Shown here: piece by piece, positions 26,523 through 61,625 of the stretch
How the letters are laid out: each line of letters opens with the position of its first letter
How positions within the stretch are numbered: position 1 is the stretch's first letter
NCBI GenBank assembly: GCA_965231095.1
Contig: OZ246416.1
Span: forward strand, 50,938 to 114,937
DNA: 64,000 nt
DNA from: an uncultured Gammaproteobacteria bacterium
GTDB lineage: Bacteria > Patescibacteriota > Patescibacteriia > XYB2-FULL-38-15
Direction of reading: 5' to 3'
Notes under the pieces: generated by a model
Told to the model about the DNA's origin: nothing
Databases searched by the model: none
What the model saw: the letters and a program-made list of their open reading frames with translations, nothing else
Made by a program: the position numbers and the translations under genes

Positions 26523-26650
26523 ATAAATTAATCAAGAATTATTCTTTTATTTTAACATAAAATCATAGCTTATTTAAGAGAAAAAGTCAACCCTACGTAA
26601 AAAATAAAAAAAAGGGGACCGAAGCGCTTTTTCGCGTCGATCCCATGCGG

Positions 26651-27055
26651 TCACGAGGTTTCCTTGACCTCGTGTATTTTGTCCTCCTTGGTGGCGACAA
26701 ACGACTTTTCTTGTTCACCAGCCACAAAGACGATTTCTAGCGTTTTCCACTCCCCGAGGGGTTCTTCGCGGCCCGTTTTCGGGTCGCGGAACTCAATCCT
26801 CGCATAATGGATGTTCTCTTCGTTCGAAAAATGATGGAGCCCCTGACAGCGTCCTCCATCAAGAGTCCGCTCGCCGCCGTTCACAATGAAGCGGAAAATC
26901 ACGTGGCTGGTGATCCAGTGGTAATTCACATCACCGGTTGCAGCCAAGCGAAGGTAAAGGCAGCCGTTCATGTAGTCGAGGTCAAGCCTCGTGATTCGGT
27001 CCAAGAGTTGCCGATGGAGTCTGCCATCGGCGAAGATACTTTTTACTTCACCCAT
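26651..27055 (-). CDS. GC-rich island A: hypothetical 134-aa protein, no recognisable domain
   Basis: ~58% GC versus ~38% for flanks; strong SD aaaGGAGtacgATG; upstream TTGACA-N17-TAAGAT promoter (27101-27129, minus); hairpin overlapping stop. Confidence 0.55.
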   Translation of the reverse strand: MGEVKSIFADGRLHRQLLDRITRLDLDYMNGCLYLRLAATGDVNYHWITSHVIFRFIVNGGERTLDGGRCQGLHHFSNEENIHYARIEFRDPKTGREEPLGEWKTLEIVFVAGEQEKSFVATKEDKIHEVKETS

Positions 27056-27100
27056 GGCGTACTCCTTTCTTTTGCCACGCGCTCCTTGTGGAGACCTCTT

Positions 27101-27129
27101 ATCTTATAATGATATCATAAATTTGTCAA
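27101..27129 (-). promoter_or_regulatory. sigma70-type promoter of island A (TTGACA-N17-TAAGAT, minus strand)
   Basis: Minus-strand reading cTTGACAaatttatgatatcattaTAAGATaag; contrasts with native extended -10 promoters. Confidence 0.5.
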
Positions 27130-27173
27130 GCCTTGAAGAAAGTAAGGTTTTTTGATAGAATAATTTTACGAGT

Positions 27174-28460
27174 ATGAAAAAATATTTTATTATTTCCTAC
27201 GGCTGCCAAATGAATAAGAGCGATTCCGAGCGAGTGGCGGCGGCGCTGGAAAAAATCGGTTATAAGCCCGCTCGGAGCGAAGCGCAGGCTGATTTGGTTG
27301 TGCTCGTAGCGTGCTCCGTGCGGCAGGCGGCGGTGGATCGGCTTTTTGGGAAAGCAAGAGAGTTGGCCAAACTTAAAACTCATAACTTAAAACTTAAAAC
27401 AGTTTTAACCGGTTGCGTTTTGCCGCAGGACAAGAAAAAATTTATAGGCAAATTTGATTTTATTTTAAATTTAGAAGATATCTCAAAATTAAAAAATCCA
27501 AAATCCAAGATACAAGATACTAAATACAAAATACTAAACACGGGCTATTTGCACCTTCAGCCGCGGCGTACGGAAAAATTTCGCGCTTACGTGCCGATTA
27601 TGACCGGCTGTAATAATTTTTGTTCATACTGCGCCGTGCCTTATGTCCGGGGAAGGGAAGCAAGCCGCCCAGCCGCCGAAGTCCTGGCCGAAATAAAAAA
27701 TTTAGCAAAAAATGGCTGCCTTGAGGTGACACTTCTTGGACAAAATGTAAATGCTTATCGGCCGAGTGACGTGAAAATTTTTTCCAAAAAAAATCCATAT
27801 AAGCATCCTTTTGCCGCGCTCTTATGGGAAGCAAATCAAACCCCGGGTATAGAGCGAATATTTTTTACCGCGCCGCATCCGCGCGATATGACGGACGATG
27901 TAATTCGCGCTCTGACTTTACCCAAAATGGTAAATTATTTGCATCTGCCGGTGCAGGCGGGCGATGATGAAGTTTTAAAACGGATGAATCGCCGTTATAC
28001 CGTGGCAGATTATTTAAAATTGGTGGCGAAAATAAAAAAGAAAAAACCGGGCATCGCGCTCGGCACGGATATTATTGTTGGATTTCCCGGCGAAACCAAA
28101 AAGGCGTTTCAAAATACTGTGGAACTTTATAAAAAAGCGGATTTTGATATCGCGTATCTGGCAATATACTCGCCACGGCAGGGGACAGCGGCAGCGAAAT
28201 TAGTTGATGATGTTCCGCGGCAAGAGAAAAAACGTCGGCGGGATATTTTGCAAAAGTTAATGGAGAAAATAGTTTTAGAAAAAAATCAAAAGTATGTCGG
28301 AAAGACAGTGTCAGTTTTGGTTGATAAATTTAAAAACGGCCAGTGTGTCGGTAATTCGCGGGAAATGAAAGTAGTACGATTTTCCGGAAAGAAAAATATG
28401 GTTGGGAAAATTTTTGAGGTTAAAGTTAAAAAAGCGTTGGAGTGGATTTTGGAAGGATAA
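27174..28460 (+). CDS. miaB: radical-SAM methylthiotransferase, MiaB/RimO family, with in-frame low-complexity insert
   Basis: MTTase N-domain YGCQMNKSDSE, radical SAM CNNFCSYC, C-terminal TRAM domain; tandem DNA repeats at 27375-27410 and 27490-27545 encode KLKTHNLKLKT and KSKIQDTKYKILNTG. Confidence 0.8.
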   Translation: MKKYFIISYGCQMNKSDSERVAAALEKIGYKPARSEAQADLVVLVACSVRQAAVDRLFGKARELAKLKTHNLKLKTVLTGCVLPQDKKKFIGKFDFILNLEDISKLKNPKSKIQDTKYKILNTGYLHLQPRRTEKFRAYVPIMTGCNNFCSYCAVPYVRGREASRPAAEVLAEIKNLAKNGCLEVTLLGQNVNAYRPSDVKIFSKKNPYKHPFAALLWEANQTPGIERIFFTAPHPRDMTDDVIRALTLPKMVNYLHLPVQAGDDEVLKRMNRRYTVADYLKLVAKIKKKKPGIALGTDIIVGFPGETKKAFQNTVELYKKADFDIAYLAIYSPRQGTAAAKLVDDVPRQEKKRRRDILQKLMEKIVLEKNQKYVGKTVSVLVDKFKNGQCVGNSREMKVVRFSGKKNMVGKIFEVKVKKALEWILEG

Positions 28461-28495
28461 AAAAAGGGCTCGCTTTGAGGTGGAGCCCGTACCAT
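28461..28495 (-). terminator. intrinsic terminator of island B operon (also downstream of miaB)
   Basis: Minus strand GGGCTCcacctcaaagcGAGCCCttttttt. Confidence 0.6.
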
Positions 28496-28505
28496 TTGCT
28501 GTCCG

Positions 28506-28754
28506 CTAGCCGATCCTTTGGACGACTTTGACATCGTGGATCTTCTGGACGTCGAACCAGTGAGTTGCTTCGCAGAGCGGTTTGTGGGGTTGATCGTACC
28601 CGCAGGGCAAGAGTTGGAAGATGTGACCATGGACCGTGATCACCTCGCCGATAAAAGCGTCCCATGGGTCGACCCACAATTGTTTTCCCTCTTTAGCCGT
28701 CTTCACAAAAGAGATCAACTTGCCGAGGTACCTTTCGGCCGATGCTTCAGCCAT
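28506..28754 (-). CDS. GC-rich island B gene 3: 83-aa soluble His/Cys-containing protein (hypothetical)
   Basis: MAEASAERYLGK...ITVHGHIFQLLPCGYDQPHKPLCEATHW; SD GAGGAGGAGG; start overlaps stop of upstream gene (gATGgcTGA). Confidence 0.55.
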   Translation of the reverse strand: MAEASAERYLGKLISFVKTAKEGKQLWVDPWDAFIGEVITVHGHIFQLLPCGYDQPHKPLCEATHWFDVQKIHDVKVVQRIG

Positions 28755-28980
28755 CGTCTTCCTCCTCCTCTTCTTCGCAGTTTTTCTTGCGGGCGCGGCG
28801 GAGAGATTCAGCCACGCAAATGACAAGGACGACGGTCATGCCGACAAGCACGGCGATCATGTAGGCCTTTCGCCAGAAGGTCAGTCCCTCGGCGGGAAGA
28901 ACCACAATGACGCCGATCACGCAGAGAATCGCGAGTAGGGCGAAGAACAGAGCGCGTAGCACGCTCCAGAGTTGTTTCAT
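28747..28980 (-). CDS. GC-rich island B gene 2: 77-aa two-TM membrane protein with poly-Glu/Asp C-terminal tail (holin-like topology)
   Basis: MKQLWSVLRALFFALLAILCVIGVIVVLPAEGLTFWRKAYMIAVLVGMTVVLVICVAESLRRARKKNCEEEEEEDDG; SD GGGGGGAG; ATGA start/stop overlap with gene 1. Confidence 0.55.
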   Translation of the reverse strand: MKQLWSVLRALFFALLAILCVIGVIVVLPAEGLTFWRKAYMIAVLVGMTVVLVICVAESLRRARKKNCEEEEEEDDG

Positions 28981-29210
28981 GGGCGTGACTCCCCCCAACG
29001 CCGCCGGGCGAAAAGCGATGCCACCGAGGTGCCGACAACCGAAAGAGCAATCCCGACGAAGCATCCAAGGATCACTTCCGTCTTCAGCTCTCCGAAGAGG
29101 TTGGTATGCGCCGCCAGGGGAATCGCCGCGGCCAGGGTGCATCCGATCAGGGCGAAGACGAGCAGACAACGGCCCGTCCTATCCTCACGTCGCGATTCTT
29201 CAAGAGTCAT
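28977..29210 (-). CDS. GC-rich island B gene 1: 77-aa two-TM membrane protein (holin/antiholin-like topology)
   Basis: MTLEESRREDRTGRCLLVFALIGCTLAAAIPLAAHTNLFGELKTEVILGCFVGIALSVVGTSVASLFARRRWGESRP; SD GGAGGAAG 2 nt before ATG. Confidence 0.55.
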   Translation of the reverse strand: MTLEESRREDRTGRCLLVFALIGCTLAAAIPLAAHTNLFGELKTEVILGCFVGIALSVVGTSVASLFARRRWGESRP

Positions 29211-29248
29211 GGCTTCCTCCTTTGCCACTTATAAGTTAATATAAAAAG

Positions 29249-30232
29249 ATGAAAGTGTCAAGAATTAAACCCCGCCTAAAGGCGGGACTCCGATCGGAGT
29301 ATAAATTGCCAAAACTAATTGTTATTTTAGGTCCGACGGCGTCGGGAAAGACGGGCTTGTCTTTGAAATTGGCAAAAAAATTTGGTGGAGAAATCGTGAA
29401 TGCCGACTCGCGGCAAGTTTATAAAAAAATGGATATTGGAACTGGAAAAGTTGAAAATAAAAAAGGAGTAAGGCATTATTTGTTGGACGTGGTCAATCCC
29501 GACGAAGAGTTTACTTTGGCAGGTTATAAAAAAAAAGCCGTGGCGGCGATTGACCATATTTTGAAACGTGGGAAAACCCCGTTTTTAGTCGGTGGCACTG
29601 GGTTATATATTCAAGCCATCGTGGACAACTTAACTATTCCCAGTGTTCCGCCGAATAAGAAACTTCGCACTGAATTCGAGCATGAACTGGCTAAAGCAAA
29701 AGAATTAGGAATTAAGAAGTATGAATTAAGAGTTTTGGAGAAGTGGTTTAAGAAATTATTAAAACTTGATCCTTGCGTAAAAGATGTAGTGGACGCTAAA
29801 AATCCGCGGAGAATAATTCGGGCGCTGGAAATTTGTCTTGCAACCGGCCGGCCGTTTTCAAAAATGCGGGGAAAGGGCGAGCCGTTGTTTCACGCGCTAC
29901 AACTTGGCATCACCATGCCGCGAGAAAAACTTTATAAAAATATTGATGATCGCGTAGACGAAATGATTAAAGACGGGTTAATAGAGGAGACAAAAAAATT
30001 ATTAAAAAAATATAATCCGAATATCCCATCAATGAGCGGGATTGGATATAAAGAAATAGGGGACTATCTGGGTGGAAGCTATGATTTAGATGAGGCGGCA
30101 GAGAAAATTAAATTTCGAACGCACGCGTACGCTCGGCGGCAGATGACGTGGTTCCGCCGTGGTAAAAGAATTAAGTGGATAAAAAATTATAAAGAAGCGG
30201 AACGAAAAATTGGTAAATGGCTAAATGGTTAA
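29249..30232 (+). CDS. miaA: tRNA dimethylallyltransferase; real start probably the SD-preceded TTG near 29309 (the first ~60 nt as tracked look like island B promoter/operator sequence)
   Basis: P-loop ILGPTASGKT, DSRQVYK motif; annotated N-terminal 20 aa are GC-rich and contain hairpins and the palindrome ACTCCGATCGGAGT. Confidence 0.8.
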   Translation: MKVSRIKPRLKAGLRSEYKLPKLIVILGPTASGKTGLSLKLAKKFGGEIVNADSRQVYKKMDIGTGKVENKKGVRHYLLDVVNPDEEFTLAGYKKKAVAAIDHILKRGKTPFLVGGTGLYIQAIVDNLTIPSVPPNKKLRTEFEHELAKAKELGIKKYELRVLEKWFKKLLKLDPCVKDVVDAKNPRRIIRALEICLATGRPFSKMRGKGEPLFHALQLGITMPREKLYKNIDDRVDEMIKDGLIEETKKLLKKYNPNIPSMSGIGYKEIGDYLGGSYDLDEAAEKIKFRTHAYARRQMTWFRRGKRIKWIKNYKEAERKIGKWLNG

Positions 30233-30284
30233 ATTGTTAAAACAAAAACGCCCCGGGATATAACCGAGGTGTTTTTTTATTTTT

Positions 30285-31850: not shown

Positions 31851-31885
31851 AAGTCAAAATGCAAAATTAATTTTGTAATAAAAAT

Positions 31886-32656: not shown

Positions 32657-32686
32657 ATAAATTTGTATTGATTCGCTATGATTTGC

Positions 32687-33987: not shown

Positions 33988-33994
33988 AAATGTT

Positions 33995-34492: not shown

Positions 34493-34495
34493 AAA

Positions 34496-35494: not shown

Positions 35495-35498
35495 AAAA

Positions 35499-38020: not shown

Positions 38021-38044
38021 AAGTTTTTGGTGGTAATAACGTCC

Positions 38045-38190
38045 CCCACTAATTTTGCCATCGATAGATAAAAGTAATTTTGAGTGATTAATTTATTTTC
38101 TAAATTTGTGGCGCCGCTTGCCCGAATAGGGCAGGGCTATTCGCCCTCGCGGCGCCCCCGGGATCGGGAGCAAAATTAGTGGGGGACTCC
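38045..38190 (-). promoter_or_regulatory. large structured leader upstream of rplA: 17-bp outer inverted repeat enclosing GC-rich hairpins (possible L1-binding autoregulatory mRNA mimic or inserted GC-rich element)
   Basis: tcccccactaattttgc (38046-38062) pairs with gcaaaattagtggggga (38166-38184); inner ggcgccgc...gcggcgcc and cgaatag..ctattcg stems. Confidence 0.45.
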
Positions 38191-38203
38191 CACAAATTAT
38201 TTT

Positions 38204-38641
38204 TTAAACTTCTTTATTGTTTTCTTTCGACTCTTTTGTTTCTTTGCTAATCATTTTCCAGTGCCACAAGAACAGGGGAATAGCAACAACGAGCATGGAA
38301 ATATCGCGAACAGCGTTTTTCTGTTTTCTCGCAACTTTCATAATTCCTTGCTGATCCTGCCAATTTTTATAATCAACCAACCAATTTTGAATCTGCAATT
38401 TTTCGTCGGCAGTCAGGTCGCATTTTTCCGCGCAACGCTCGGCCGTTTCACCCTGCGCCCGCTCATTAATCATGTAAGGAACCGGCGGCGCCCATTCATC
38501 GGCGCGATCAGCGTTTTTAAAGACCCAAGTTTTGAGGCCGAGATTTGCGAGATCAACCGTTCCCCAAACAATCATCATTAAAGCAATCAAGGCAATCAGG
38601 TAGAAATAAACCGTTCGGATTGAGTTTAGTTTGATGGCCAT
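38204..38641 (-). CDS. hypothetical membrane protein inserted between rplK and rplA
   Basis: Start set at MAIKLNSIRTVYFYLIALIALMMIVW (TM helix); upstream track extension is GC-rich overlap with island G. Confidence 0.5.
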   Translation of the reverse strand: MAIKLNSIRTVYFYLIALIALMMIVWGTVDLANLGLKTWVFKNADRADEWAPPVPYMINERAQGETAERCAEKCDLTADEKLQIQNWLVDYKNWQDQQGIMKVARKQKNAVRDISMLVVAIPLFLWHWKMISKETKESKENNKEV

Positions 38642-38724
38642 ACATTGTAAATTAAGAGAAATAATTTTTTGTTCGCATAAAATTAGGTGGGGGAGTACTT
38701 GCGGAAGCACGCCCCCAACCTGGT

Positions 38725-38940
38725 CTACTTGGTCGCTGGTGGTGTTACGGCGTCGCCGTGATGGACGGGACAATTGGGGTCGTCTCGCTTAATCACATTC
38801 AGCTTTATCCCCATGCCAGTGCGCAAATGTCCGCAGGTGCATCTTGGGTCTACTCTGCCCAATCCGAAGCACGAGCAAACGGCAAAGTTGCAGTCGTCAT
38901 AGAATACGGCGCCGCACTTGTCACACCGGAATTCATGCAT
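38725..38940 (-). CDS. GC-rich island G: 71-aa Cys-rich putative metal-binding protein
   Basis: MHEFRCDKCGAVFYDDCNFAVCSCFGLGRVDPRCTCGHLRTG...NCPVHHGD (8 Cys, 4 His); SD GGAGG 7 nt before ATG; hairpin tgggggagtacttgcggaagcacgccccca at 38691-38722. Confidence 0.5.
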   Translation of the reverse strand: MHEFRCDKCGAVFYDDCNFAVCSCFGLGRVDPRCTCGHLRTGMGIKLNVIKRDDPNCPVHHGDAVTPPATK

Positions 38941-39008
38941 CTCTTTCCTCCTTCTCTTTACGGGAACAAAAAATTATTTCTCAAAATTTTTAATGAACTT
39001 TTATTATT

Positions 39009-42506: not shown

Positions 42507-42717
42507 TTAAACCTCTCCGCCCACGGCGGAAAATGAGGTGAAATTGGCTAATATTTATTAAGTTATTATAGCATAGATTATTTTGTAAAACAAGGGTTTA
42601 ATGTTTGACTTTTTATAATAAAAAAAGATAGGATAAAAGCGCTTCTCATGGCGAGAAGACCCGGGCCACGGGCAGTGGCAAATTACCTTCGGGCTTACAG
42701 TCCGGAAGGAGACAGAA

Positions 42718-43632
42718 ATGGCGAAGTATGAAAAGCTGAACCTGGGTCAGATTGAAGCGCTCGTGAACATCTTGGGTGGCATGGAGGTCGTGAAGAAGAT
42801 TCTTCGCGGGACGAAGAAGCCTCTTCCCCCGGACAAAGGCTTTCGGTCCCTTTTTGACAACTACGGCCGCCGCGTTGCGCCTCCTACGATGAGCGACAAG
42901 GGAGGAGCCGATCCGGAGGTGTGTTTGGCTCAGCCGGCGATGCATCTTCCACCGGGACCGGGAACAAGGTTCAAGGGTTTGTGCGAACGCCTTGGCTGGC
43001 AGAACCAGATGACTCCGGAAGAATTTCGCGCGCGGGTGGACAAGGCGGTAGAGAAGATCAACTTCGGCAGCATCAGAGAAGAGGTGAGGGGAATTTTGGG
43101 TGGTGTGTATCTGCCCTTTGGTCTTCCGCAGGTGACCTCCAGCGATTGCGGGGAGATCCTTGACGAACTCGGCTTGATCAATGCGGTTGAGCGTGTTTTC
43201 AAGGAAAGATTTCCCGAGGGGCAGTTTTTCGGACAAGAAAAATCCCTGAAGGGAGGCTTCCGCTTGATCGAAGGAAGTCGCCACGAGCGATTTTTGGAGG
43301 CCTTGACAAAGGAGCCGGTCGTTGCCATCTACTTCCCATTGGCGCTCCAAGGGTATTTGCCCGATAAGGCCGTCGAGCAGATGGAGAGCCTGCCGGAAGA
43401 GTTTCTGCTTTCCGGTGTGGTTGATACAGCGGCGGCGATCATGATGTATCCGGAAGTTCTACTTCGGGACACCTGCGTGCCGCAGCTCGGATGTTCGGCA
43501 GTGAAGCGCTGGGTGACCGGAGTTTCCTCATTCGATGTCAGTGACGGCAGCGACAAGATCACGCTCGCCTTCGGGGGGTGCCAGATCTTTGGGCGCGGCA
43601 AGTTTACTTCCGGCCTCACCGTCATCGCGTAG
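42718..43632 (+). CDS. GC-rich island C: hypothetical 304-aa protein, no recognisable domain
   Basis: ~60% GC; SD GGAAGGAGA 6 nt before ATG; TTGACT promoter-like element at 42605; downstream terminator 43695-43728. Confidence 0.6.
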   Translation: MAKYEKLNLGQIEALVNILGGMEVVKKILRGTKKPLPPDKGFRSLFDNYGRRVAPPTMSDKGGADPEVCLAQPAMHLPPGPGTRFKGLCERLGWQNQMTPEEFRARVDKAVEKINFGSIREEVRGILGGVYLPFGLPQVTSSDCGEILDELGLINAVERVFKERFPEGQFFGQEKSLKGGFRLIEGSRHERFLEALTKEPVVAIYFPLALQGYLPDKAVEQMESLPEEFLLSGVVDTAAAIMMYPEVLLRDTCVPQLGCSAVKRWVTGVSSFDVSDGSDKITLAFGGCQIFGRGKFTSGLTVIA

Positions 43633-43694
43633 TGCAGAGTCGTTGTGCCTTGAGTTAAACCCGATAAGGGTTTGATTCTTGGACGCTAGTCGTC

Positions 43695-43728
43695 TGAGCG
43701 GATCCCGTGCGGTCCGCTCTTTTTTATA
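43695..43728 (+). terminator. intrinsic terminator of island C
   Basis: GAGCGGAtcccgtgcggTCCGCTCtttttt. Confidence 0.65.
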
Positions 43729-48628: not shown

Positions 48629-48738
48629 TTTTATATTTTAAAAATAACCAAACGATCTCGGCCGGCGAGGTCTTTTTTTACCCTCACACCAATGCATTGG
48701 TGTGAGGGTTTATTTCTCTTTGGGCTGGGGGTATAATT

Positions 48739-49623: not shown

Positions 49624-49650
49624 ATAAATATTTAAATATTATAACATAAA

Positions 49651-49692
49651 AAATCACCCGAGCGTTGCGTGCGATTGGGCGCGCAAAACTCG
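49651..49692 (-). terminator. intrinsic terminator of island D 197-aa gene
   Basis: Minus strand CACCCGAGttttgcgcgcccaatcgcacgcaacgCTCGGGTGattttttat. Confidence 0.6.
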
Positions 49693-49706
49693 GGTGTGAC
49701 GGTCGG

Positions 49707-50297
49707 TTACGGGGAAGTGATGTCCTTCGTCCCGTCGTAGGGATCGCCGGAGTCGGCGGAATCGTCGGCGGGCGGCGCAGCGGGCGAGACGACCTCGACT
49801 TCCTCCTCGATGTCCTCGGCCACCACGACCGTGGTTTCCGGCGCGTCTTCGAGGATCTCGACCATCTTCATCGCCTGGCGCACACAGGCCGACAGCTCGG
49901 CGGTGGAGAAGGCGTAGGAGAGTTGTTCGAAGGTAACCCGGCGTCCTGGTTCCGTGTCCTTCGACATCCAGTGTTCGATCAGCTTGGCGAGATCATCGTC
50001 GGAGACGCGTTTCAGGATCTCCTCGATCGCGGATTTTGCGCCGTTCTCGATACCGCCGAGCATCGCCTGGCGCATGATGGGCACGGTGTCTTTCTTGTCA
50101 CCGGGCCAGATCCCGAGTAGATCGCCAACGATCTTCTCGAAGGTGTGCACTTGGGCAATGTGAGCCAGGCCGCTGGCCCGGCTCAAATTGATGTGGTGCA
50201 AGATGATCCAGATGTTCAGGACGCCGAGATCCACGAAGTGCTGGAGCATCGCCGCTAGCGTCAACTTCTTGTCTCTTTCCTTCTTGGATTCCGCCAT
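49707..50297 (-). CDS. GC-rich island D gene 2: hypothetical ~197-aa protein (helical, acidic C-terminal tail)
   Basis: MAESKKERDKKLTLAAMLQHFVDLGVLNIWIILHH...; ~62% GC; minus-strand promoter cTTGACAa-N17-TAAGGT at 50342-50370; 5' UTR palindrome CTCCGATTAATCGGAG. Confidence 0.55.
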   Translation of the reverse strand: MAESKKERDKKLTLAAMLQHFVDLGVLNIWIILHHINLSRASGLAHIAQVHTFEKIVGDLLGIWPGDKKDTVPIMRQAMLGGIENGAKSAIEEILKRVSDDDLAKLIEHWMSKDTEPGRRVTFEQLSYAFSTAELSACVRQAMKMVEILEDAPETTVVVAEDIEEEVEVVSPAAPPADDSADSGDPYDGTKDITSP

Positions 50298-50382
50298 TGT
50301 CTTCCACTCGCTCCGATTAATCGGAGTCCTTTCTATCCGCACCTTAGTTTAAAAAATAAAATTTGTCAAGATAAAAAAAGAG

Positions 50383-50445
50383 CCCGTGGATTGCTTGGAG
50401 TTGGGGCACGGGACGTGTCTCCAAAGCAATCCACGGGCTGGGTGA
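50383..50445 (-). terminator. long-stem intrinsic terminator after island D zinc-ribbon gene
   Basis: agcccgtggattgcttggag...ctccaaagcaatccacgggct ~20-bp stem followed on minus strand by ctcttttttt. Confidence 0.6.
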
Positions 50446-50608
50446 TGCCCAGCGGGTGCCGTGAGGCTGGCCGGCTGGGCTCAGTCGCGTGACCCGCCCG
50501 GGGGGTAGGAGGGCACCGGGGAGCCGACGCGAGCTTGGGGAACGGAGAGTTCTCGAGCGAACTCGCAAACTCTCACGTTATTGGTGGGTAAGTTACAGGC
50601 GGGTCTTG

Positions 50609-50881
50609 TCAGGGTCGGGGGCAGTTCCGGACGACATGCATTCGCTTGCGCCTGGCGCGGGCGACGCCGTCCGTGTACTTCTTGCCCTTGCGTTCGGCGA
50701 AAGTGTGCATCGAGCAGTAGTGCCCGGTATTCCCGCTACGGAGAATCGTTCCACAGTCGGGTTCCTGGCATCGCCGCGGCTTGCCATCGTCGGTGCTCCG
50801 ACCGCTGTCGTGCACGTCGCCGAGCGAATTGGCGCCGACCGTGCCGGTACCCTGATCCATTCCGAGCGCGCTCCAGTCCAT
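50609..50881 (-). CDS. GC-rich island D gene 1: 90-aa Cys/His-cluster (zinc-ribbon-like) protein, possibly nucleic-acid binding
   Basis: ...RRCQEPDCGTILRSGNTGHYCSMHTF...; SD GGAGGAGGAAGG before ATG; 5' UTR hairpin ccttgcgt..acgcaagg. Confidence 0.55.
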   Translation of the reverse strand: MDWSALGMDQGTGTVGANSLGDVHDSGRSTDDGKPRRCQEPDCGTILRSGNTGHYCSMHTFAERKGKKYTDGVARARRKRMHVVRNCPRP

Positions 50882-51004
50882 CCTTCCTCCTCCTCAACCT
50901 TCCCTATTATCAACTCGTCCTGTCCACCAGGCCGAGGCTTAGGGCCACCTTCCTTGCGTTTTGACGCGTGCCAATAACGCAAGGCCACCCTGTTTGTTGA
51001 TTTT

Positions 51005-51065
51005 AGAATATAATAAAAAGCTTAATTTGTCAACCCCTTGACAAATTTTAAGATTGTGGTAGAGT
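51005..51065. promoter_or_regulatory. divergent sigma70-type promoter pair with palindromic overlapping -35 boxes (TTGTCAAccccTTGACAA)
   Basis: Plus: TTGACA(51038-43)-N16-TAGAGT(51060-65). Minus: TTGACA-N16-TATTCT (plus agaata 51005-10). Perfect inverted repeat ttgtcaa/ttgacaa around cccc. Confidence 0.55.
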
Positions 51066-51071
51066 GTTCTG

Positions 51072-51388
51072 TAGGGTAATGGGGAGTCCTGTTTGGTTGA
51101 TGCCGGCAGCGCACCGGCGTCGTGGGCAGTCATTTTTTGCTTCACTCTGAATCCGGAACCCTTGGCTGGTGAACAGCGCGTTGTAGCGCGGCTGGCCTTG
51201 TGGCGAAGGACCCACGGAGTGGCCCGACAGGAACCCGGTTCGCGAGCTGCCCGTTAAGCAGACGTGGGCTGAAATCTCCCCAGCGCATCTGATCCTCCAA
51301 GTCCGCTTCGGCGGGCACGGAGGTCACCATTCTTTGCACACCGCTGCATTTCGCGTTGTGCCCGTCGGTCGAACACCCTGTTCGACCG
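51072..51388 (+). ncRNA. candidate ~320-nt GC-rich structured non-coding RNA of unknown class, driven by the island D plus-strand promoter and ending in a strong intrinsic terminator
   Basis: No plus-strand ORF with SD; CCGCuucgGCGG UUCG tetraloop hairpin, several GC stems; terminator GTCGGTCGAACaccctGTTCGACCGACtctttttt at 51354-51388. Confidence 0.45.
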
Positions 51389-51394
51389 ACTCTT

Positions 51395-51418
51395 TTTTAT
51401 ATAAAAAACCGGCCTTGC
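51395..51418 (-). terminator. intrinsic terminator of prfA
   Basis: Minus strand CCGGCCgcaaGGCCGGtttttt, preceded by cccgactaaagtcggg hairpin. Confidence 0.6.
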
Positions 51419-51489
51419 GGCCGGAGGGAACGGAGTCCCGACTTTAGTCGGGTTATACATTGCCCACCCTGAAGAGTGGACTCCAAAAT

Positions 51490-52605: not shown

Positions 52606-52863
52606 CTACTTTGTTTTTTTCGCTCTCGGTTTCTTTTCTTTTTTTGTTGCCGCCATAGACGCCTTCTTTTCCATTTTTTCTTTGAATTTTTCCACGCGTC
52701 TGGCCGAATCAACTAATTTCTGTTTGCCGGTGTAGAACGGATGGCAGGCAGAACACAACTCAACCTTTATTTCTTTTAAGGTTGAGCCGACGGTAAAAGC
52801 GTTGCCGCAGGCGCAAGTCACTTTTGCTTTTGGATAATATTCTGGGTGAATTTCTTTTTTCAT
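52606..52863 (-). CDS. rpmE: 50S ribosomal protein L31
   Basis: [23 protein letters not shown]...[10 protein letters not shown]. Confidence 0.9.
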
Positions 52864-52925
52864 AAAATAGATTATTTATTTACATTAATCTTAATTTAAC
52901 ATAAGGCCGTGAGTTTGGCAAGGGG

Positions 52926-52956
52926 TTGACAAAATTACGGGGTGGAGTAATAAGAT
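52926..52956 (+). promoter_or_regulatory. sigma70-type promoter of island E (TTGACA ... TAAGAT)
   Basis: ggggTTGACAaaattacggggtggagtaaTAAGATgag. Confidence 0.5.
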
Positions 52957-52987
52957 GAGTAGGGGTTGCCACAAAAGGAGGTGTTCT

Positions 52988-53224
52988 ATGGCAAGAAGAA
53001 GTTGGAGTTTCGAGCATCGGGGTACGGAAGGCGTCATCAAGACGCCTGACGGGGAGCACGTCGTCCATTCCAAAGAGGAGGCCAAGCGGCACTTGCAAGA
53101 GGGTGCACACCTGAAATATATCAGCTCTTCGATTGCCGGCCCTACCCTCGCGGAGCGGGACGAGGCCAGGGAATGGAGAGAGGCGGTGAGGCAGGTCAAT
53201 GAGTCCAGCCTTCCCGACAAGTAG
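52988..53224 (+). CDS. GC-rich island E: hypothetical 78-aa protein
   Basis: MARRSWSFEHRGTEGVIKTPDGEHVVHSKEEAKRHLQEG...; SD aaaGGAGGtgttctATG; terminator 53233-53285 with nested tccga-gaaa-tcgga hairpin. Confidence 0.55.
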   Translation: MARRSWSFEHRGTEGVIKTPDGEHVVHSKEEAKRHLQEGAHLKYISSSIAGPTLAERDEAREWREAVRQVNESSLPDK

Positions 53225-53232
53225 TCGGACAT

Positions 53233-53285
53233 CGGTTGTGTTGGTCGGCAGGAAATCCGAGAAATCGGAGAGTACTGCCGGCCGT
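53233..53285 (+). terminator. intrinsic terminator of island E with nested GAAA-tetraloop hairpin
   Basis: GTCGGCAGgaaaTCCGAgaaaTCGGAgagtaCTGCCGGCcgttttttt. Confidence 0.6.
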
Positions 53286-53621
53286 TTTTTTATTTTCAAA
53301 AATCTCTCCCCCTCCTTTCGAAGGAGGGGTTAGGGGTGGTTTTTAAAAACTCCCACCCCACCTAACCTCCCCTCGGGCAGGGGAGGAATATTGAGCATTT
53401 GCCCTTGCCCCCACACCAATTTCAGCGAGGCCATTTTTATCCGAGTTTAAAATAAAAAAATTGGTGTGGGGGCTTGCATTATTTTTGCTTTTGTGTAAAA
53501 ATAGATGAAAGTCATTTATTAATAGTAATCCCACATGTTTTGCCTTTAAAACTTGTTCCTGATCCCCGCCACTGCGGGGACCCGCAAGTTTTGGCAAAAC
53601 AGAGGTTAAAAAGGAAAATTT

Positions 53622-54407: not shown

Positions 54408-54536
54408 TTCAATTGAAGTAATTAGTAATTGGTAATTAGTGCAGAACCACCCCCAACCCCCTCCTTCTAAAGGAGGGGAAAATGGTGGTTGAAATTACTC
54501 GTTGCCCGTTACGCGTTACTCGTTACTTATAAACAT

Positions 54537-55127: not shown

Positions 55128-55133
55128 GCCGCT

Positions 55134-55925: not shown

Positions 55926-56000
55926 GAGAATAGTTTCGTTTCGTGATTTTAATAGATTTTAATATTATATTTTGAAGACATAACCTGTTTTCAAAAATAG

Positions 56001-57020
<1,020 letters not shown>

Positions 57021-57042
57021 GATTTTTGATTTAAGATTTTAG

Positions 57043-57078
57043 ATTAAAATATAGAGCCAGCCCCGCCATGGCGGGGCT
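57043..57078 (+). terminator. intrinsic terminator after gap
   Basis: GCCAGCCCCGCCatgGCGGGGCTGGCttttattt. Confidence 0.7.
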
Positions 57079-57139
57079 GGCTTTTATTTATAATGCCTTC
57101 ATGTTAAAATGTTATAATGATTAAATGTTTTAATAGGGT

Positions 57140-57754: not shown

Positions 57755-57847
57755 CGGGCGACGGTCAACAGTTAACAGTAATAAATATAGAGCGGGTTTT
57801 ATGCCCGCCTTTTTTGTGTTATAATGTTTTAATGTTAAAACGATTTT

Positions 57848-59622: not shown

Positions 59623-59659
59623 ACCTGACAATTAACAGTTGACAATTAACAATTAACAG

Positions 59660-60565
59660 TTGACTATGAAAAATAAAGGATATTTTTTGGTTTTAGGAAC
59701 GGCGATAATTTCCGGCGTTTCTATTTTTGTAAATCAGTTTGGCGTTAAAGTTATCAATTCGGATATTTTTACCGGTTTGAAAAATATAGTGGTGGCCGTA
59801 ATTTTGTTGTGTCTTATTTTTTGGTTTAAAGAATGGAAGTTATTGGCAAAATTAAAAATCAAGGAATGGCTGACTTTGGTTTTAATCGGTTTGGTCGGCG
59901 GCAGCATTCCGTTTTTACTTTTCTTCAAGGGCCTGGCCGCGACAAGCGGAGCGAGCACGTCTTTTATTCATAAAACTTTATTTATTTATGTAATAATTTT
60001 GGCGGCGCTGTTTTTGAAAGAAAAAATAAGTAAAAATTTAGCGATCGGCGCGGCCTTGCTTTTGCTCGGCAATGTGGCGCTCTTGAAAATTTTTAATGGA
60101 TTTCAATTCGGTTATGGCGAGTTATTGGTTTTGTTTGCTACGCTGTTTTGGGCGGCGGAACAAATTATTTCTAAGCGGGCGCTTCAAGATATTTCTCCGA
60201 AAATTGTCGCTTGGGGCAGAATGTTTTTCGGATTTTTATTTATTTTTATTTTTTGGGCGGCGACGGGTCAGTTGAAATTGCTGGGCGGGGTGGGAGCGGC
60301 GGAATTAAGTTGGGTTTGGATTACAGCCGTTTTTCTTTTAGGCTATGTTTTAACTTGGTATTCTGGCTTGAAATATATAAAAGTTTCAACCGCGGCGTGT
60401 ATTTTATCTTTAGGCGCGCCAATTACCAGCTTGCTTGAAATGGCGCAAAAAGGAATTTTTGATTGGCAGATTTTTCTCGGGAGTTTGTTGATGTTTGCGG
60501 GAGTAATTTTAGCGGTAGATTTATTTTCACGGATTAAAATGGCGGCAACAAACGCGATCCGTTAA
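59660..60565 (+). CDS. EamA/DMT superfamily transporter, flanked by ~35-bp inverted repeats
   Basis: 10 TM helices in two EamA-like halves; flanking caattaacagttgacaattaac (59629-59663) and its reverse complement (60561-60597). Confidence 0.65.
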   Translation: MTMKNKGYFLVLGTAIISGVSIFVNQFGVKVINSDIFTGLKNIVVAVILLCLIFWFKEWKLLAKLKIKEWLTLVLIGLVGGSIPFLLFFKGLAATSGASTSFIHKTLFIYVIILAALFLKEKISKNLAIGAALLLLGNVALLKIFNGFQFGYGELLVLFATLFWAAEQIISKRALQDISPKIVAWGRMFFGFLFIFIFWAATGQLKLLGGVGAAELSWVWITAVFLLGYVLTWYSGLKYIKVSTAACILSLGAPITSLLEMAQKGIFDWQIFLGSLLMFAGVILAVDLFSRIKMAATNAIR

Positions 60566-60599
60566 CTGTCAACTGTTAATTGTTAACTGTTTATTTACC

Positions 60600-60833
60600 A
60601 TGTGTTTTGGTGTCCCTTGTAAAATTGAAAAAGTAAATAAAAATAAAGCCACCATAAAAAATGGCGGCAAAGTTTTTGATATAGACACCTCGCTCTTGCC
60701 AAAAATAAAAAAAAATGATTGGATATTGGTGCAGGGCAATATTGGAATGAAGCAAATATCGGAGGATGAAGCAAAAAGTTGCCTTGCCGTTTTGGACGAA
60801 TTCCAAAGTAAAGAGGGGAAGGGAGGACTGTGA
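60600..60833 (+). CDS. hypC: [NiFe]-hydrogenase maturation chaperone HypC/HupF family
   Basis: N-terminal MCFGVPCKI (MCxxxP signature), ~77 aa. Confidence 0.75.
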   Translation: MCFGVPCKIEKVNKNKATIKNGGKVFDIDTSLLPKIKKNDWILVQGNIGMKQISEDEAKSCLAVLDEFQSKEGKGGL

Positions 60834-61567
60834 TGGAGAGAACATACGCAAGAGCGGCGCGCTACGCGCTCTATCCGAACATGCTCGGGCTTTGCGGGCC
60901 GCGCGGAAGGGGCAAGGAAAAACTCTACGAGTATTTGACTCTCAAGACCAAGGTGGACGACCAAGAGGCGAGGGAATTACTCGAGCAATTCACCGCGGCC
61001 ACGGCCTACATGAAACTGATTGCCGCGGCAAACGAGATTCCGGACTGGCTGGATCCGAGGGTGGTTGACGCCTACTGGATTGGAAACGACCTTTTGAACC
61101 TTGTCCGCGCCGAGGATCTGAAGGAATTGATCCATGGTCTCGTTCTAGCAGGAAAGCTTGCCGAGTCCGCGGCGGAAGAAGCGATTGCCCGTGTCCACCG
61201 CGATCATCGTCCGCACCATAGCTTCCATGTTTTTGTGATCGGCGGACTTTCCGGCCAAGTGGAGCGCGGGTCAATCGGCTGGGAACTTTGCCGTATCGGC
61301 TGGGGGACGGTCGCCCGCGTCAAGCATGACGGCAACCTCACAGTTTTGGCAGAGTCTTTGTTGCAAAAGGGCGGCAAGATTTTTCCTGAACTTGAGGGAG
61401 TGGAAAGAGAGCGGCTCATCAGGCGCGACCGGGAACTTTTCCCACGCGTTTCCTCTGGTGACCTCGTTGCTTTCCACTGGGGCAGAGTGGTTGAAATTAT
61501 TGACCACGACGCAGCACGGCGGCTGGACTATTGGACCGAACGGACGCTCCGGCACTGCAGACTGTAG
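60833..61567 (+). CDS. GC-rich island F: hypothetical 244-aa protein inserted in the hydrogenase cluster directly after hypC
   Basis: ~60% GC; SD AAGGGAGG; start overlaps hypC stop (gtgATGg); terminator 61593-61625 AGACTAGCttttaggGGCTAGTCttttttt. Confidence 0.55.
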   Translation: MERTYARAARYALYPNMLGLCGPRGRGKEKLYEYLTLKTKVDDQEARELLEQFTAATAYMKLIAAANEIPDWLDPRVVDAYWIGNDLLNLVRAEDLKELIHGLVLAGKLAESAAEEAIARVHRDHRPHHSFHVFVIGGLSGQVERGSIGWELCRIGWGTVARVKHDGNLTVLAESLLQKGGKIFPELEGVERERLIRRDRELFPRVSSGDLVAFHWGRVVEIIDHDAARRLDYWTERTLRHCRL

Positions 61568-61592
61568 AAAAAATCCATCGCAAACGTTTTCG

Positions 61593-61625
61593 GAGACTAG
61601 CTTTTAGGGGCTAGTCTTTTTTTGT
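61593..61625 (+). terminator. intrinsic terminator of island F
   Basis: GAGACTAGCttttagggGCTAGTCTttttttgtg. Confidence 0.65.

Follow-up and report, generated by a model that had tools for sequence, protein, structure and literature searches.

What are the small blocks of GC-rich DNA that interrupt the housekeeping operons of an AT-rich bacterium, and how did they get there? The window, i.e. the whole stretch of 64,000 nucleotides analysed here, belongs to Candidatus Falkowbacteria (Patescibacteria/CPR), a tiny groundwater bacterium with an AT-rich genome of ~0.9 Mb, and holds about nine small, self-contained, GC-rich transcription units wedged among housekeeping genes. The original prediction took these for a dispersed, co-regulated set of foreign genes. 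The units are indeed dispersed, compositionally alien and self-contained, and shared regulation is plausible, but a foreign origin does not fit the data: we propose, with a probability of roughly 0.6, that the islands are clade-specific, moron-like accessory units that carry their own expression signals and are reshuffled by recombination, and not recent foreign inserts. The source is a metagenome, which brings to mind an assembly or binning artefact with GC-rich reads chimerically joined into an AT-rich contig; however, the probability of such an artefact is negligible given that the same cassettes occupy the same junctions in independent NCBI MAG, JGI, ENA and Logan assemblies from different samples. 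The window itself was recovered in Logan, NCBI and ENA contigs, the longest of 886 kb, indicative of a genuine assembly.

Composition and expression signals

GC analysis finds discrete segments of GC 0.55-0.69 at or near every position originally predicted, whereas the GC content of the window is 0.438, not the claimed ~38%:

26614-27032, GC 0.55
28466-29194, GC 0.58
38108-38193, GC 0.69
38686-38929, GC 0.58
42639-43719, GC 0.57
49655-51484, three blocks, GC 0.60-0.64
53011-53432, GC 0.57
60813-61564, GC 0.58

The proposed tally of at least eight cassettes has to be amended nonetheless, the segment at 38045-38190 being a hairpin element only and the one at 49640-51470 comprising three units (E, F and G). 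Codon usage of the island ORFs remains non-native upon recomputation, with GC3 of 0.63-0.82 vs 0.33-0.54 for native genes of the window and sharply shifted fractions of AAG (0.75 vs 0.15), ATC (0.66 vs 0.20) and TTA (0.01 vs 0.25).

The typical unit, as predicted from sequence, starts with a -35-dependent sigma-70-type promoter and a GC-rich, often structured leader that ends in a strong Shine-Dalgarno (SD) sequence; one to three rapidly evolving ORFs restricted to the clade (a structured RNA in G) come next, and a conserved trailer with an intrinsic terminator closes the unit. Native genes, by contrast, combine an extended -10 promoter with a very short leader and AT-rich codons, and mostly lack an SD. 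Both predicted hallmarks are borne out: the native extended -10 box TGNTANAAT has 28 matches against 11 expected, many of them directly upstream of native starts, and an SD precedes all 10 island ORFs but is missing from most native genes. Judging by these signals, two expression styles coexist in one ~0.9 Mb genome, and both persist across species.

The cassettes have in common an extended promoter box, (c)TTGACAAATTT. The exact 11-mer TTGACAAAWTT occurs four times in the 64 kb, each time at the 5' edge of an island and in the correct orientation (A, E, G and I); the box of F is one mismatch away, and the promoter cores are near-identical, with 14 nt common to E and G and 15 nt common to F and I. 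Across 14 clade loci, all 25 sites matching TTGACAA[AT][AT]T lie ahead of GC-elevated DNA. A canonical TTGACA promoter, predicted for every cassette, is found in some but not in others: the exact box is absent from B (non-canonical spacing), D (TTGACT), and C and J (no such promoter). The cassettes plausibly share regulation as a group, which the common box might bring about. Likewise, the description of one to three unrecognisable ORFs per cassette fits neither G nor the element at 38045-38190, which have no ORF, nor J, which encodes a DUF6390 protein.

Fixed slots between core genes

Units sit at fixed intergenic positions, flanked by core genes that adjoin each other in more distant relatives. 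As predicted, cassettes split conserved operons (prfA/prmC and rplK/rplA, but also miaB/miaA), and one follows hypC. When ~20 kb of the locus was compared for each relative (denoted L below), about a dozen related Falkowbacteria proved to have orthologous cassettes in matching slots: PP2C-miaB, miaB-miaA, gyrB-n43784, prfA-prmC, S2-L31 and after hypC. Cassettes A, B and J illustrate the pattern:

26598..27129, minus strand: cassette A, between a PP2C-like gene and miaB
27119-27129 and 27101-27106, minus strand: A promoter, -35 TTGACAAATTT and -10 TAAGAT, followed by a ~45-nt leader with SD AAAGGAG
26651-27055, minus strand: A coding sequence, 134 aa
~26600-26645, minus strand: A terminator hairpin and T-run
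28466..29261, minus strand: cassette B, between miaB and miaA
29256-29261, minus strand: B promoter TTGACA, spacing to the -10 non-canonical as read directly; SD AAGGAGGAAGCC
28977-29210, minus strand: B1, 77 aa, two transmembrane segments (TM)
28747-28980, minus strand: B2, 77 aa, two TM
28506-28754, minus strand: B3, 82 aa, soluble
28466-28492, minus strand: B terminator hairpin
60833..61625, plus strand: unit J, a GC-rich DUF6390 gene (coding sequence 60833-61567, 244 aa; SD GGGAGGA)
61592-61619, plus strand: J terminator

The orthologue of A in L084 is 72% identical at the amino acid level, in the same slot and under the same promoter, with GC3 of 0.65 vs 0.63 in the window; that in L088 is 30% identical. 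A shows a weak link to sCache_2 repeats. The miaB-miaA slot follows the same pattern across relatives as prfA-prmC (below): the two genes are adjacent (gap of 0-25 bp) in distant relatives, and in L084 the slot holds a cassette of two small-TM ORFs whose terminator is conserved. The B proteins gave only holin and 2TM-effector matches, all sub-threshold. The start of J overlaps the stop of an AT-rich hypC-like gene, hence the lack of a promoter of its own; its protein, predicted to be unrecognisable, matches the DUF6390 profile at 2e-40, and the L003 orthologue after hypC is 65% identical with GC3 of 0.67.

So could the islands have been recently acquired from a GC-rich donor, as a regulon, a defence or symbiosis module, or a new type of mobile cassette? 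The atypical GC, GC3, codon usage, SD and promoter type all suggest so, and presence or absence varies among close relatives at some slots, D for instance being missing in L002. Yet the relatives, expected to lack the segments if these were foreign, carry them in the same slots, together with their leaders and trailers, at equally high GC and inside equally AT-rich genomes. Because related species have the cassettes at identical sites and with an equally odd composition, these do not appear to be recent inserts. Moreover, orthologue GC3 is 0.65-0.85 in every lineage vs 0.33-0.55 for native genes, even though native dS between species is about 0.5-3, i.e. near saturation; assuming the native mutational regime, this composition is maintained, as opposed to being an un-ameliorated relic. 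Among 1.8-5.8 billion proteins, no homologue was found outside the clade (8 relatives of D, 16 of E and 10 representatives of A, those checked all belonging to this clade), and GC-rich relatives do not generally use SDs. PADLOC, PHROG and NCBIfam yield no match, and no defence system was recognised; nor does a mobile cassette seem to be involved, given the lack of integrase, transposase and reverse transcriptase genes in the window and of att sites and target-site duplications at the cassettes. Recent foreign acquisition is therefore highly improbable.

Candidate structured RNAs in the prfA-prmC slot

The slot between prfA and prmC contains three units:

49650..50369, minus strand: cassette E, directly upstream of prmC
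50359-50369 and 50341-50346, minus strand: E promoter, -35 TTGACAAATTT and -10 TAAGGT
49707-50297, minus strand: E coding sequence, 196 aa, helical bundle and disordered acidic tail
49655-49696, minus strand: E terminator hairpin
50374..51033, minus strand: cassette F
51005-51033, minus strand: F promoter, TTGACAAATTA-N-TATTCT
~50882-50998, minus strand: F leader, ~115 nt, conserved and structured
50609-50881, minus strand: F coding sequence, 90 aa, zinc-ribbon-like (C-x4-C...C-x2-H) with a basic tail
50381-50439, minus strand: F terminator hairpin, with a conserved 3' element
51038..51398, plus strand: unit G, ~325 nt without ORF, a candidate for a novel structured ncRNA gene
51038-51065, plus strand: G promoter, TTGACAAATTT-16-TAGAGT
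51364-51390, plus strand: G terminator

Most distant relatives that have both genes on the locus (L013-L016, L018, L020-L022) show a spacing of 23-170 bp between prfA and prmC, compared with 0.9-3.2 kb in L002-L012; in the close relatives L002-L006, GC of the slot is 0.54-0.58 (peaks of 0.64-0.69) vs 0.44-0.48 for the genomes. Orthologues of E and F occupy it in L002, L003, L004, L164, L166 and L168, and all five E family members with context examined (L002, L003, L164, L166, L168) map to this slot. E evolves fast (dN of 0.54-0.69 vs 0.04-0.33 for native genes) but retains GC3 of 0.74-0.85 in all lineages. Its AF2 model (pLDDT 82) is a nine-helix bundle, with no decisive match in fold comparison. 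The F leader is present in nine genomes, each time after prfA, and in L002, L006 and L168 an unrelated ORF, F', is found under the F-type promoter, leader and 3' element; all four combinations of leader variant and cargo (F or F') exist.

G is divergent from F, with the -35 boxes palindromic back-to-back (AATTTGTCAA-CCCC-TTGACAAATT), and its nucleotide identity among the window, L002, L006 and L166 is 68-84%. The predicted fold (MFE z = -3.6) pairs 97.8% of the alignment cells and is backed by compensatory changes in 11 of 90 pairs, with none of 500 shuffles as good; Rfam gave no match even at E<=10. The F leader, too, has support as a structured RNA, and these two cassette parts, G and the F leader, look like undescribed structured RNAs.

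A further, ORF-less GC-rich element lies in the rplA 5' region:

38041..38187, minus strand: inverted-repeat element, its GC-rich multibranch core enclosed by a perfect closing stem of 18 bp (88% over a 25-nt arm)

Its RNA fold has z = -8.0 and no match in Rfam; having neither promoter nor ORF, it is not the expression cassette it was thought to be at 38045-38190. Are the islands, then, mainly structured RNA genes or elements, GC-rich as is the case in AT-rich genomes, with incidental ORFs? Besides G and this element, the greater conservation of the F leader and the D untranslated regions compared with their ORFs points that way, as does the fact that GC-rich DNA yields long chance ORFs on both strands. 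However, the ORFs have an SD and ATG at the correct spacing and are conserved at the amino acid level (F dN/dS ~0.3, indicative of protein-level constraint; A 72% and I 86% identical), the GC excess peaks at third positions (GC1/GC2/GC3 of 0.60/0.39/0.80 in E), AF2 gives confident models even when the alignments are shallow, and A and J match protein families. That the islands are mainly RNA is accordingly very unlikely.

Are the cassette genes young?

Two more units bear on this question:

38643..38995, minus strand: unit C, after rplK in the rplK-rplA interval
38725-38940, minus strand: C coding sequence, 71 aa, Cys-rich, SD AAGGAGGAAAGAG, starting 68 nt past the rplK stop
~38684-38722, minus strand: C terminator hairpin
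38643-38681 and 38957-38995: flanking 39-nt inverted repeat of C, the left arm overlapping the next gene's start codon
42605..43728, plus strand: cassette D, flanked by gyrB and a native gene of 289 aa (n43784)
42605-42634, plus strand: D promoter, TTGACT-18-TAGGAT, followed by a conserved, structured leader of ~80 nt
42718-43632, plus strand: D coding sequence, 304 aa
43696-43719, plus strand: D terminator, with a conserved 3'UTR

C directly follows the rplK stop, is oriented alike in each of the three contigs where it occurs, and is a singleton among 5.8 billion proteins. D has an orthologue in L082, and its AF2 model (pLDDT 80) adopts a C-type-lectin/FGE-like fold. Recent de novo birth of the ORFs out of palindromic elements or GC-rich transcripts of intergenic regions would explain both orphan status and fast evolution, and is compatible with the tiny families, with C flanked by inverted repeats, and with the abundance of GC-rich hairpin elements that shift position in these intergenic regions. 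Such an origin is nevertheless hard to credit for the set: D, E and A have confident complex folds (C-type-lectin/FGE-like, nine-helix bundle and Cache-like domain, respectively), J is a member of a widespread family, and the families span species with saturated native dS and hence are not young.

Mosaicism and the mode of turnover

Conserved frame and variable cargo are recurrent features: conservation is higher in promoter, leader and trailer than in the ORFs (for promoter plus leader, in 9 of 10 comparisons), F or F' is swapped inside such a frame, slots are empty, singly or doubly occupied, and cassettes are mosaics of segments from different lineages. Cassette I is a case in point:

52926..53283, plus strand: cassette I, between the L31 and S2 genes
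52926-52936, plus strand: I promoter, -35 TTGACAAAATT; SD AAAGGAGG
52988-53224, plus strand: I coding sequence, 78 aa
~53245-53283, plus strand: I terminator hairpin

Its orthologues in L004 and L005 are 86% and 48% identical in amino acids, the slot being empty in L003 and L164; the coding sequence resembles L004 (90% of nucleotides) and the trailer L005 (91%), and dS against L004 is 0.25 vs 0.73-0.74 in the flanking genes.

Promoter, ORF and terminator set between conserved genes, with odd composition, are the anatomy of a moron. True morons, steadily re-supplied from a clade-specific GC-rich reservoir of phages, plasmids or other extrachromosomal elements co-evolving with Falkowbacteria, would keep GC high and account for cargo swapping; the mosaicism, the low dS of I and the sharp compositional boundaries agree with this. 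Still, such re-supply seems unlikely: cassettes match no phage families or viral contigs, with no relatives of E or D among 2.9 million viral contigs (where F-leader matches are chance seeds), although CPR phages are poorly sampled and this absence is weak evidence; BFVD yields no structural relative for D; the best PHROG match, a membrane protein vs B2, is sub-threshold (E=0.0016); and all examined homologues of E, F and D are in chromosomal housekeeping context, those of E and F without exception in one and the same slot.

For moron-like units that are specific to the clade, the mosaics, seen in a handful of sequences, suggest turnover by homologous recombination between related lineages, in which the conserved non-coding frames and flanking core genes would serve as homology arms and dedicated mobility machinery would play no part. 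The high GC3 might be under active maintenance, either through selection acting on the transcripts or through a conversion bias that affects cassettes only, as opposed to being inherited from a donor. Native gene ends abutting cassettes show no GC3 spill (0.448 vs 0.434, p = 0.56), which speaks against GC conversion linked to recombination as a simple explanation. Structured leaders may gate access to the SD, in which case cassette translation would be controlled separately from that of the SD-less bulk genes. The proteins could be accessory factors in sensing, binding or conflict, with selection on them either relaxed or diversifying; small two-TM proteins and zinc ribbons appear to be among them, as do a Cache-like domain and a C-type-lectin/FGE-like fold.

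Outside cassette I but adjoining it is a further feature:

53290..53480, no strand assigned: GC-rich palindromic hairpin cluster, including CCCCCACACCAATTT/AAATTGGTGTGGGGG

Related hairpins are found at another position in L005 and also at 48680-48709, and a second copy of 53309-53341 is present at 54445-54478.

Host, gene content and base composition

The window is a real segment of a metagenome-assembled chromosome: Logan run SRR8863431 contains it, as do NCBI and ENA contigs that reach 886 kb in length. Its host belongs to Candidatus Falkowbacteria (Patescibacteria/CPR) and has a genome of about 0.9 Mb; the RF1 sequence is 88-91% identical in the closest public MAGs. All genes outside the GC-rich units encode ordinary housekeeping functions (RecG, RadA, PheST, DnaE, ThrRS, MiaB, MiaA, GatB, ThyA, DHFR, L1, L11, NusG, GyrB, FtsW, L25, PrmC, RF1, L31, S2, EF-Ts, GAPDH and hydrogenase subunits), and no integrase, transposase, reverse transcriptase or phage gene is found among the window proteins. 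Amid the housekeeping genes, a gene of native composition at 20464-21969 encodes a probable surface protein of 501 aa that contains thrombospondin type-3 and PKD repeats.

The GC content of the window is 0.438 rather than the approximately 38% given in the original prediction, and the discrete GC-rich segments that it described are recovered by log-odds segmentation:

28466-29194, strong GC-rich block
42639-43719, strong GC-rich block
49655-50262, strong GC-rich block
50380-50992, strong GC-rich block
51081-51484, strong GC-rich block
53011-53432, strong GC-rich block
60813-61564, strong GC-rich block
26614-27032, weaker GC-rich block
38108-38193, weaker GC-rich block
38686-38929, weaker GC-rich block

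The count of eight segments needs to be revised: 49640-51470 comprises three units (E, F and G, all in the prfA-prmC slot), and 38045-38190 is not a cassette at all but an inverted-repeat element upstream of rplA (fold z-score -8.0). When codon usage is recomputed, the island ORFs remain far from native usage. The GC excess resides mainly in third codon positions (GC3 of 0.63-0.82 vs 0.33-0.54 in the native genes), with both G-ending and C-ending codons raised, such that codon choice is almost inverted between islands and natives (AAG 0.75/0.15; ATC 0.66/0.20; TTC 0.65/0.16; TTA 0.01/0.25). Known RNA genes (rRNA, tRNA, RNase P, tmRNA, SRP, 6S) can be dismissed as the cause of the islands, given that none has an Rfam match there even at permissive thresholds; the only tRNAs in the window are at 46-138 and 806-879.

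Slots shared across species and the upkeep of high GC

Gene order around the window is conserved across the Patescibacteria relatives. The prfA-prmC gap of distant relatives is mostly 23-170 bp and their miaB-miaA gap 0-25 bp, whereas in the close clade these joints are occupied by inserts of 0.9-3 kb; the prfA-prmC insert has a GC content of 0.54-0.58 (peaks of 0.64-0.69) in host genomes of 0.44-0.48. The placement of cassettes at intergenic joints is thereby borne out for prfA/prmC, miaB/miaA, S2/L31 and gyrB/n43784 (a native 289-aa gene), which are adjacent or empty in some relatives. Orthologs occupy the same slots in other genomes: that of A (between a PP2C-like gene and miaB) in L084 (72%, same promoter) and L088 (30%); D (gyrB/n43784) in L082; E and F in L002, L003, L004, L164, L166 and L168; and I (S2/L31) in L004 and L005. 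J, located after hypC, has an ortholog in L003. Altogether, the cassette slots are orthologous across about a dozen species. The E family consists of 16 members among 5.8 billion proteins and lies between prfA and prmC in all five members with context examined; D has 8 relatives, 10 cluster representatives of A were found among 1.84 billion, and no relatives of C (between rplK and rplA) turned up among 5.8 billion proteins.

A foreign-looking composition is normally read as a sign of recent transfer that will ameliorate with time, and the cassettes had indeed been taken for foreign rather than native genes. This part of the prediction does not hold. The synteny comparison places filled cassettes in the same slots of close relatives, and the two marks of a recently transferred island, absence from close relatives and un-ameliorated composition, are not seen. 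Native synonymous sites are near saturation between these species (dS of 0.5-3), and the GC3 of the cassette orthologs stays at 0.65-0.85 in all lineages, including at dS of about 1 or more, compared with 0.33-0.55 in the natives. Thus, we have to view the composition as maintained, not as the fading signature of a donor. The anomaly is inherited across species and tied, within a genome of about 0.9 Mb, to a separate style of promoter, ribosome-binding site and codon choice. If true, this provides a test system for the forces behind local base composition (selection acting on transcripts, or biased conversion), for the gain, exchange and loss of moron-like units where no mobility genes take part, and for the regulation of the many clade-specific orphan proteins of CPR bacteria.

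So what could keep the GC content high? GC3 does not spill into the abutting ends of native genes (0.448 vs 0.434, p = 0.56); GC-biased conversion spreading to the flanks is thus not seen, and a diffuse recombination-linked conversion bias is unlikely. Import from GC-rich Patescibacteria can be discarded as well: the homologs are absent there and Shine-Dalgarno (SD) sites are not used as a rule. Three viral scans for a phage reservoir, including IMG/VR, were negative, the 22 matches to a 15-mer being chance seeds. Three options are left: selection on the transcripts (for their structure, their stability or initiation that depends on the SD), a conversion process restricted to the cassette frames, or a reservoir yet to be sampled.

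Two further observations concern the slots themselves. A GC-rich PRPP synthetase gene resides in the prfA-prmC slot of two relatives (L003, 11135-12103, GC3 0.71; L166, 3116-4099), so that the GC-rich class is not limited to orphan proteins. In L003, a further GC-rich unit (approximately 1399-2429, 0.55 GC) with the promoter box TTGACAAAAT is located between J and a phosphoribosyltransferase gene; since the window has only a terminator at this joint, it represents another variable slot.

Expression signals

At the sequence level, A, D, E, F and I appear to be self-contained, each with a promoter, an ORF and a terminator, and G likewise, as an RNA. The strong SD sites and hairpin terminators that had been proposed are found: an SD precedes 10 of the 10 island ORFs and is absent from most natives, and at the 3' ends a GC hairpin precedes a T-run. 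Equally well founded were the extended -10 promoters of the background, because the box TGNTANAAT that precedes native genes is enriched (28 matches vs 11 expected), with many copies directly upstream of native starts. The canonical TTGACA promoter claimed for every segment stands only in part. The exact 11-mer TTGACAAAWTT occurs four times in the window, each time at the 5' edge of an island unit and in the correct orientation (A, E, G and I), and F carries a copy with one mismatch. The remaining units deviate: D has TTGACT, the TTGACA box of B (between miaB and miaA) has non-canonical spacing, and neither C, which follows the rplK stop, nor J, which overlaps the hypC stop, has a promoter of its own. 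The promoters that share the common box, hereafter TTGACAAATTT promoters, have cores that are near-identical past the hexamer, with 14 nt common to E and G and 15 nt to F and I. A distinct -10 class, TANGNT, had to be dropped because only A, E and one unrelated site fit it.

The association of the box with GC-rich DNA extends beyond the window. All 25 TTGACAA[AT][AT]T sites in 14 clade loci precede GC-elevated DNA (mean 0.565 vs 0.443), and the downstream DNA is more than 0.08 above background at 20 of the 25, compared with 11.5% of random windows. In L007, a relative with lower GC, the units behind the same box are lower in GC too, yet above background. The description of the cassettes as dispersed and distinct is borne out, and their co-regulation is probable, judging from the shared signals.

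SD use is very low in these Patescibacteria (6-20% of genes in the window and the relatives), and native leaders extend just 15-25 nt or so after the extended -10 box; together, these observations suggest that bulk genes initiate translation largely independently of SD sites.

RNA components

Unit G encodes no protein and appears to be an RNA gene:

51038-51398 (+), G, RNA candidate of about 325 nt with its own promoter and terminator and no ORF

G shows 68-84% nucleotide identity in four genomes and an MFE z-score of -3.6. In its consensus fold, 97.8% of cells are paired vs about 40% with the partners slid, and compensatory changes occur in 11 of 90 pairs vs 4.3±1.7 in shuffles, figures that come from few sequences and a fold derived from the same sequences. 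The second component is the leader of F, found in nine genomes, always just after prfA, where it precedes either F or F', an unrelated ORF in the same frame. It comprises the helix AGGGUGGCC/GGUGGCCCU, covarying inner hairpins and an invariant UAGGGAAGG ahead of the SD; the paired cells make up 95.3%, and compensatory changes affect 6 of 25 pairs vs 2.2±1.0 in shuffles, again for few sequences from which the structure itself was derived. No island has an Rfam match at the gathering score, and G, the F leader and the element upstream of rplA have none even at E<=10 or E<=0.5. G and the F/F' leader are candidates for new RNA classes. RNase P-like motifs in G (GGGGAGUCC, ACAGGAACCCGG) are supported by no model. 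To our knowledge, almost no structured RNAs are known in the phylum, for which the RNA of about 325 nt and the leader of about 100 nt before alternative ORFs are two concrete new candidates.

Gain, loss and exchange of cargo

Comparison of filled and empty sites indicates that the unit of gain and loss is the whole transcription unit, from approximately 10 bp upstream of the -35 box to the T-run of the terminator, with no target duplication in these comparisons. The gyrB/n43784 slot comes in several states: empty in L002, occupied by D in the window, by an unrelated GC-rich gene, X, in L006, and by X and D in tandem in L082. The S2/L31 slot is empty in L003 and L164 and filled by I in the window, L004 and L005.

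The non-coding frames are better conserved than the genes they enclose. Nucleotide identity is 0.75-0.93 in promoter and leader vs 0.62-0.75 in the coding sequence, the non-coding part being higher in 9 of 10 comparisons; in D, the leader and trailer are 88% and 91% identical and the protein 45%. F and the Arg-rich F', which are mutually unrelated, alternate within one frame made up of the F promoter, the nearly invariant leader (about 115 nt) and a conserved 3' element, and leader variants and cargo occur in all four combinations. I is a mosaic, with a coding sequence of the L004 type and a trailer of the L005 type, and its dS from L004 is 0.25, compared with 0.73-0.74 for the flanking genes. 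These patterns point to recombination between lineages, within and around the cassettes; the cassettes' own promoter, leader and trailer would appear to act among the homology arms. The rates of protein change differ: dN is high in E (0.54-0.69) and D (0.53), intermediate in F (0.23-0.51) and J (0.26) and native-like in A (0.17), the natives ranging from 0.04 to 0.33.

Encoded proteins

The segments were said to carry one to three unrecognisable ORFs each. This holds for nine of the 10 island proteins, for which Pfam, PHROGs, PADLOC and NCBIfam return nothing significant; G lacks an ORF, and J is a full-length DUF6390 protein (Pfam PF19927, 2e-40, 139 bits vs a gathering cutoff of 25). HMM and structure searches add only weak leads. 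A has distant relatives in sCache_2 repeats (E = 7e-5 vs a protein with 13 Cache stretches), E is predicted to form a nine-helix bundle with a disordered acidic tail, for which the fold search gave weak helical-bundle matches, none decisive, F and C are Cys-rich and zinc-ribbon-like, and B1 and B2 are small two-TM proteins. B2 has sub-threshold matches to a PHROG (E=0.0016) and to the generic 2TM effector of PADLOC (E=0.003), but no island protein matches a PADLOC defence-system model above threshold, which leaves the suggested defence module without backing. PDB sequence searches with D, E and F found no solved structure, and a fold search of D against viral structures (BFVD) found nothing. 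There is no paralogy among the cassette proteins, so the 'family' is architectural, not homologous.

A diversity-generating retroelement (DGR) was considered for D and rejected. The variable protein of a DGR has a reverse transcriptase close by and a template repeat that differs from its variable region specifically at adenines. The divergence of D is spread along the whole protein, unlike that of the DGR target proteins of CPR, and in the window there is neither a template-repeat copy of D nor a reverse transcriptase among the proteins.

Relation to known systems

Among known concepts, phage morons and flexible islets driven by recombination come nearest. Morons, in the concept of Hendrix and Juhala, are autonomous units of a promoter, one or more ORFs and a terminator between genes that are adjacent in relatives, with atypical composition, presence or absence between relatives, and accessory proteins without assigned function. 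The window units resemble them in all these respects, being autonomous, patchy, odd in composition, located between genes adjacent in relatives and coding for accessory orphan proteins. Unlike morons, however, they are set in a bacterial chromosome among housekeeping genes and away from any phage gene (all flanks are housekeeping, and there are no significant PHROG, BFVD or IMG/VR matches), occupy orthologous sites in about a dozen species with composition kept over saturated synonymous divergence, share an extended -35 box, and have conserved structured leaders and trailers; in addition, one unit is a candidate RNA gene.

Flexible genomic islands, or integration hotspots between core genes, are replaced by homologous recombination in the flanks. 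They share with the cassettes fixed positions between core genes, cargo that differs between lineages, mosaics and the lack of dedicated mobility genes, but the window units are single transcription units of 0.3-1.1 kb rather than multi-gene islands, have their own promoter, RBS and codon style, and apparently count their own promoter, leader and trailer among the homology arms. Integron cassettes are likewise small and modular, can be stacked in tandem (as X and D in L082) and have 3'-end hairpins; the window units, in contrast, are scattered rather than in one array, have their own promoters, and end in GC hairpins with T-run terminators, with no integrase, attI or attC in the window. Terminal inverted repeats, target-site duplications and transposases, the hallmarks of transposons, MITEs and IS, were not found, with the exception of the inverted repeat of C. 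Finally, GC-rich structured ncRNAs in AT-rich genomes are the basis of discovery pipelines that use GC content and the length of intergenic regions. G and the F leader are similarly GC-rich, intergenic, conserved in nucleotide sequence and marked by compensatory base-pair changes, but they belong to no Rfam family, and most islands encode proteins with a GC excess at third codon positions.

The original observation was largely right, and four features set the cassettes apart from these concepts: the chromosomal housekeeping context, slot-bound inheritance across species, maintained composition with private expression signals, and conserved RNA frames. In the literature we found no prior description of such cassettes.

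A bold possibility is that one tiny CPR genome stably keeps two expression 'dialects', a scenario to which, taken as a whole, we would assign a probability of only about 0.12. The bulk dialect would consist of extended -10 promoters, no SD and AT-rich codons, and that of the cassettes of -35-dependent promoters with the common box, structured leaders, strong SDs and GC-rich codons. Selection would retain the latter because a separate expression regime is needed, perhaps for times when transcription and translation of the bulk genes are switched off, perhaps under a factor that targets sigma region 4 or the leaders, and control of this regime would fall to G and the F leader as new classes of RNA. 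In the boldest version, the cassettes would be expressed inside the bacterial host cell of the presumed episymbiont; for comparison, T-DNA genes carry host-type signals.

Local features

Flanking repeats are absent from A, B, D, E, F, G, I and J. The singleton gene C alone is bracketed by an inverted repeat, and a structured element lies nearby:

38643-38681 and 38957-38995, 39-nt inverted repeat around C, 85% complementary, with a perfect core of about 20 bp, GAGAAATAATTTTTTGTTC
38021-38200 (-), structured element upstream of rplA, MFE z = -8.0, 18-bp closing stem

The left arm of the repeat overlaps the start codon of the next gene, and there is no target duplication or second copy. The repeat could be a long-range RNA stem, insertion ends or the arms of an invertible segment; as for an inverton, the opposite orientation is not seen in three contigs, all from the same genome. 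The element upstream of rplA shares the motif AAAATTAG(G)TGGGGG with the C terminator and is possibly a leader for L1 autoregulation, or else a palindromic element. The rplK-rplA pair is almost universally adjacent, and an extra gene between them is unusual; in the window a gene of native composition (38204-38641, minus strand) for a one-TM protein of 145 aa with a faint DUF5671 match also lies there.

A sub-threshold Rfam match to FtrB at 57033-57125 (E=0.022; 35.9 bits, the gathering score being 66) falls on a bidirectional terminator hairpin with 14 bp of perfect pairing, downstream of the GAPDH gene, and probably reflects no more than that hairpin. GC-rich palindromic hairpins with the sequences CCC[CT]CACACCAAT... 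and CCTTTCGAAGGAGGGG... recur in intergenic regions:

53290-53480, GC-rich palindromic hairpins
48680-48709, GC-rich palindromic hairpin
54445-54478, GC-rich palindromic hairpin
L005, approximately 4150-4250, GC-rich palindromic hairpins

They behave like REP or MITE elements because their positions differ in relatives. A stretch of about 150 nt upstream of rpsB/S2 (approximately 53480-53621), which has no Rfam match, is almost invariant in six genomes, with conservation far above that of synonymous sites, and is likely to be an rpsB regulatory leader.
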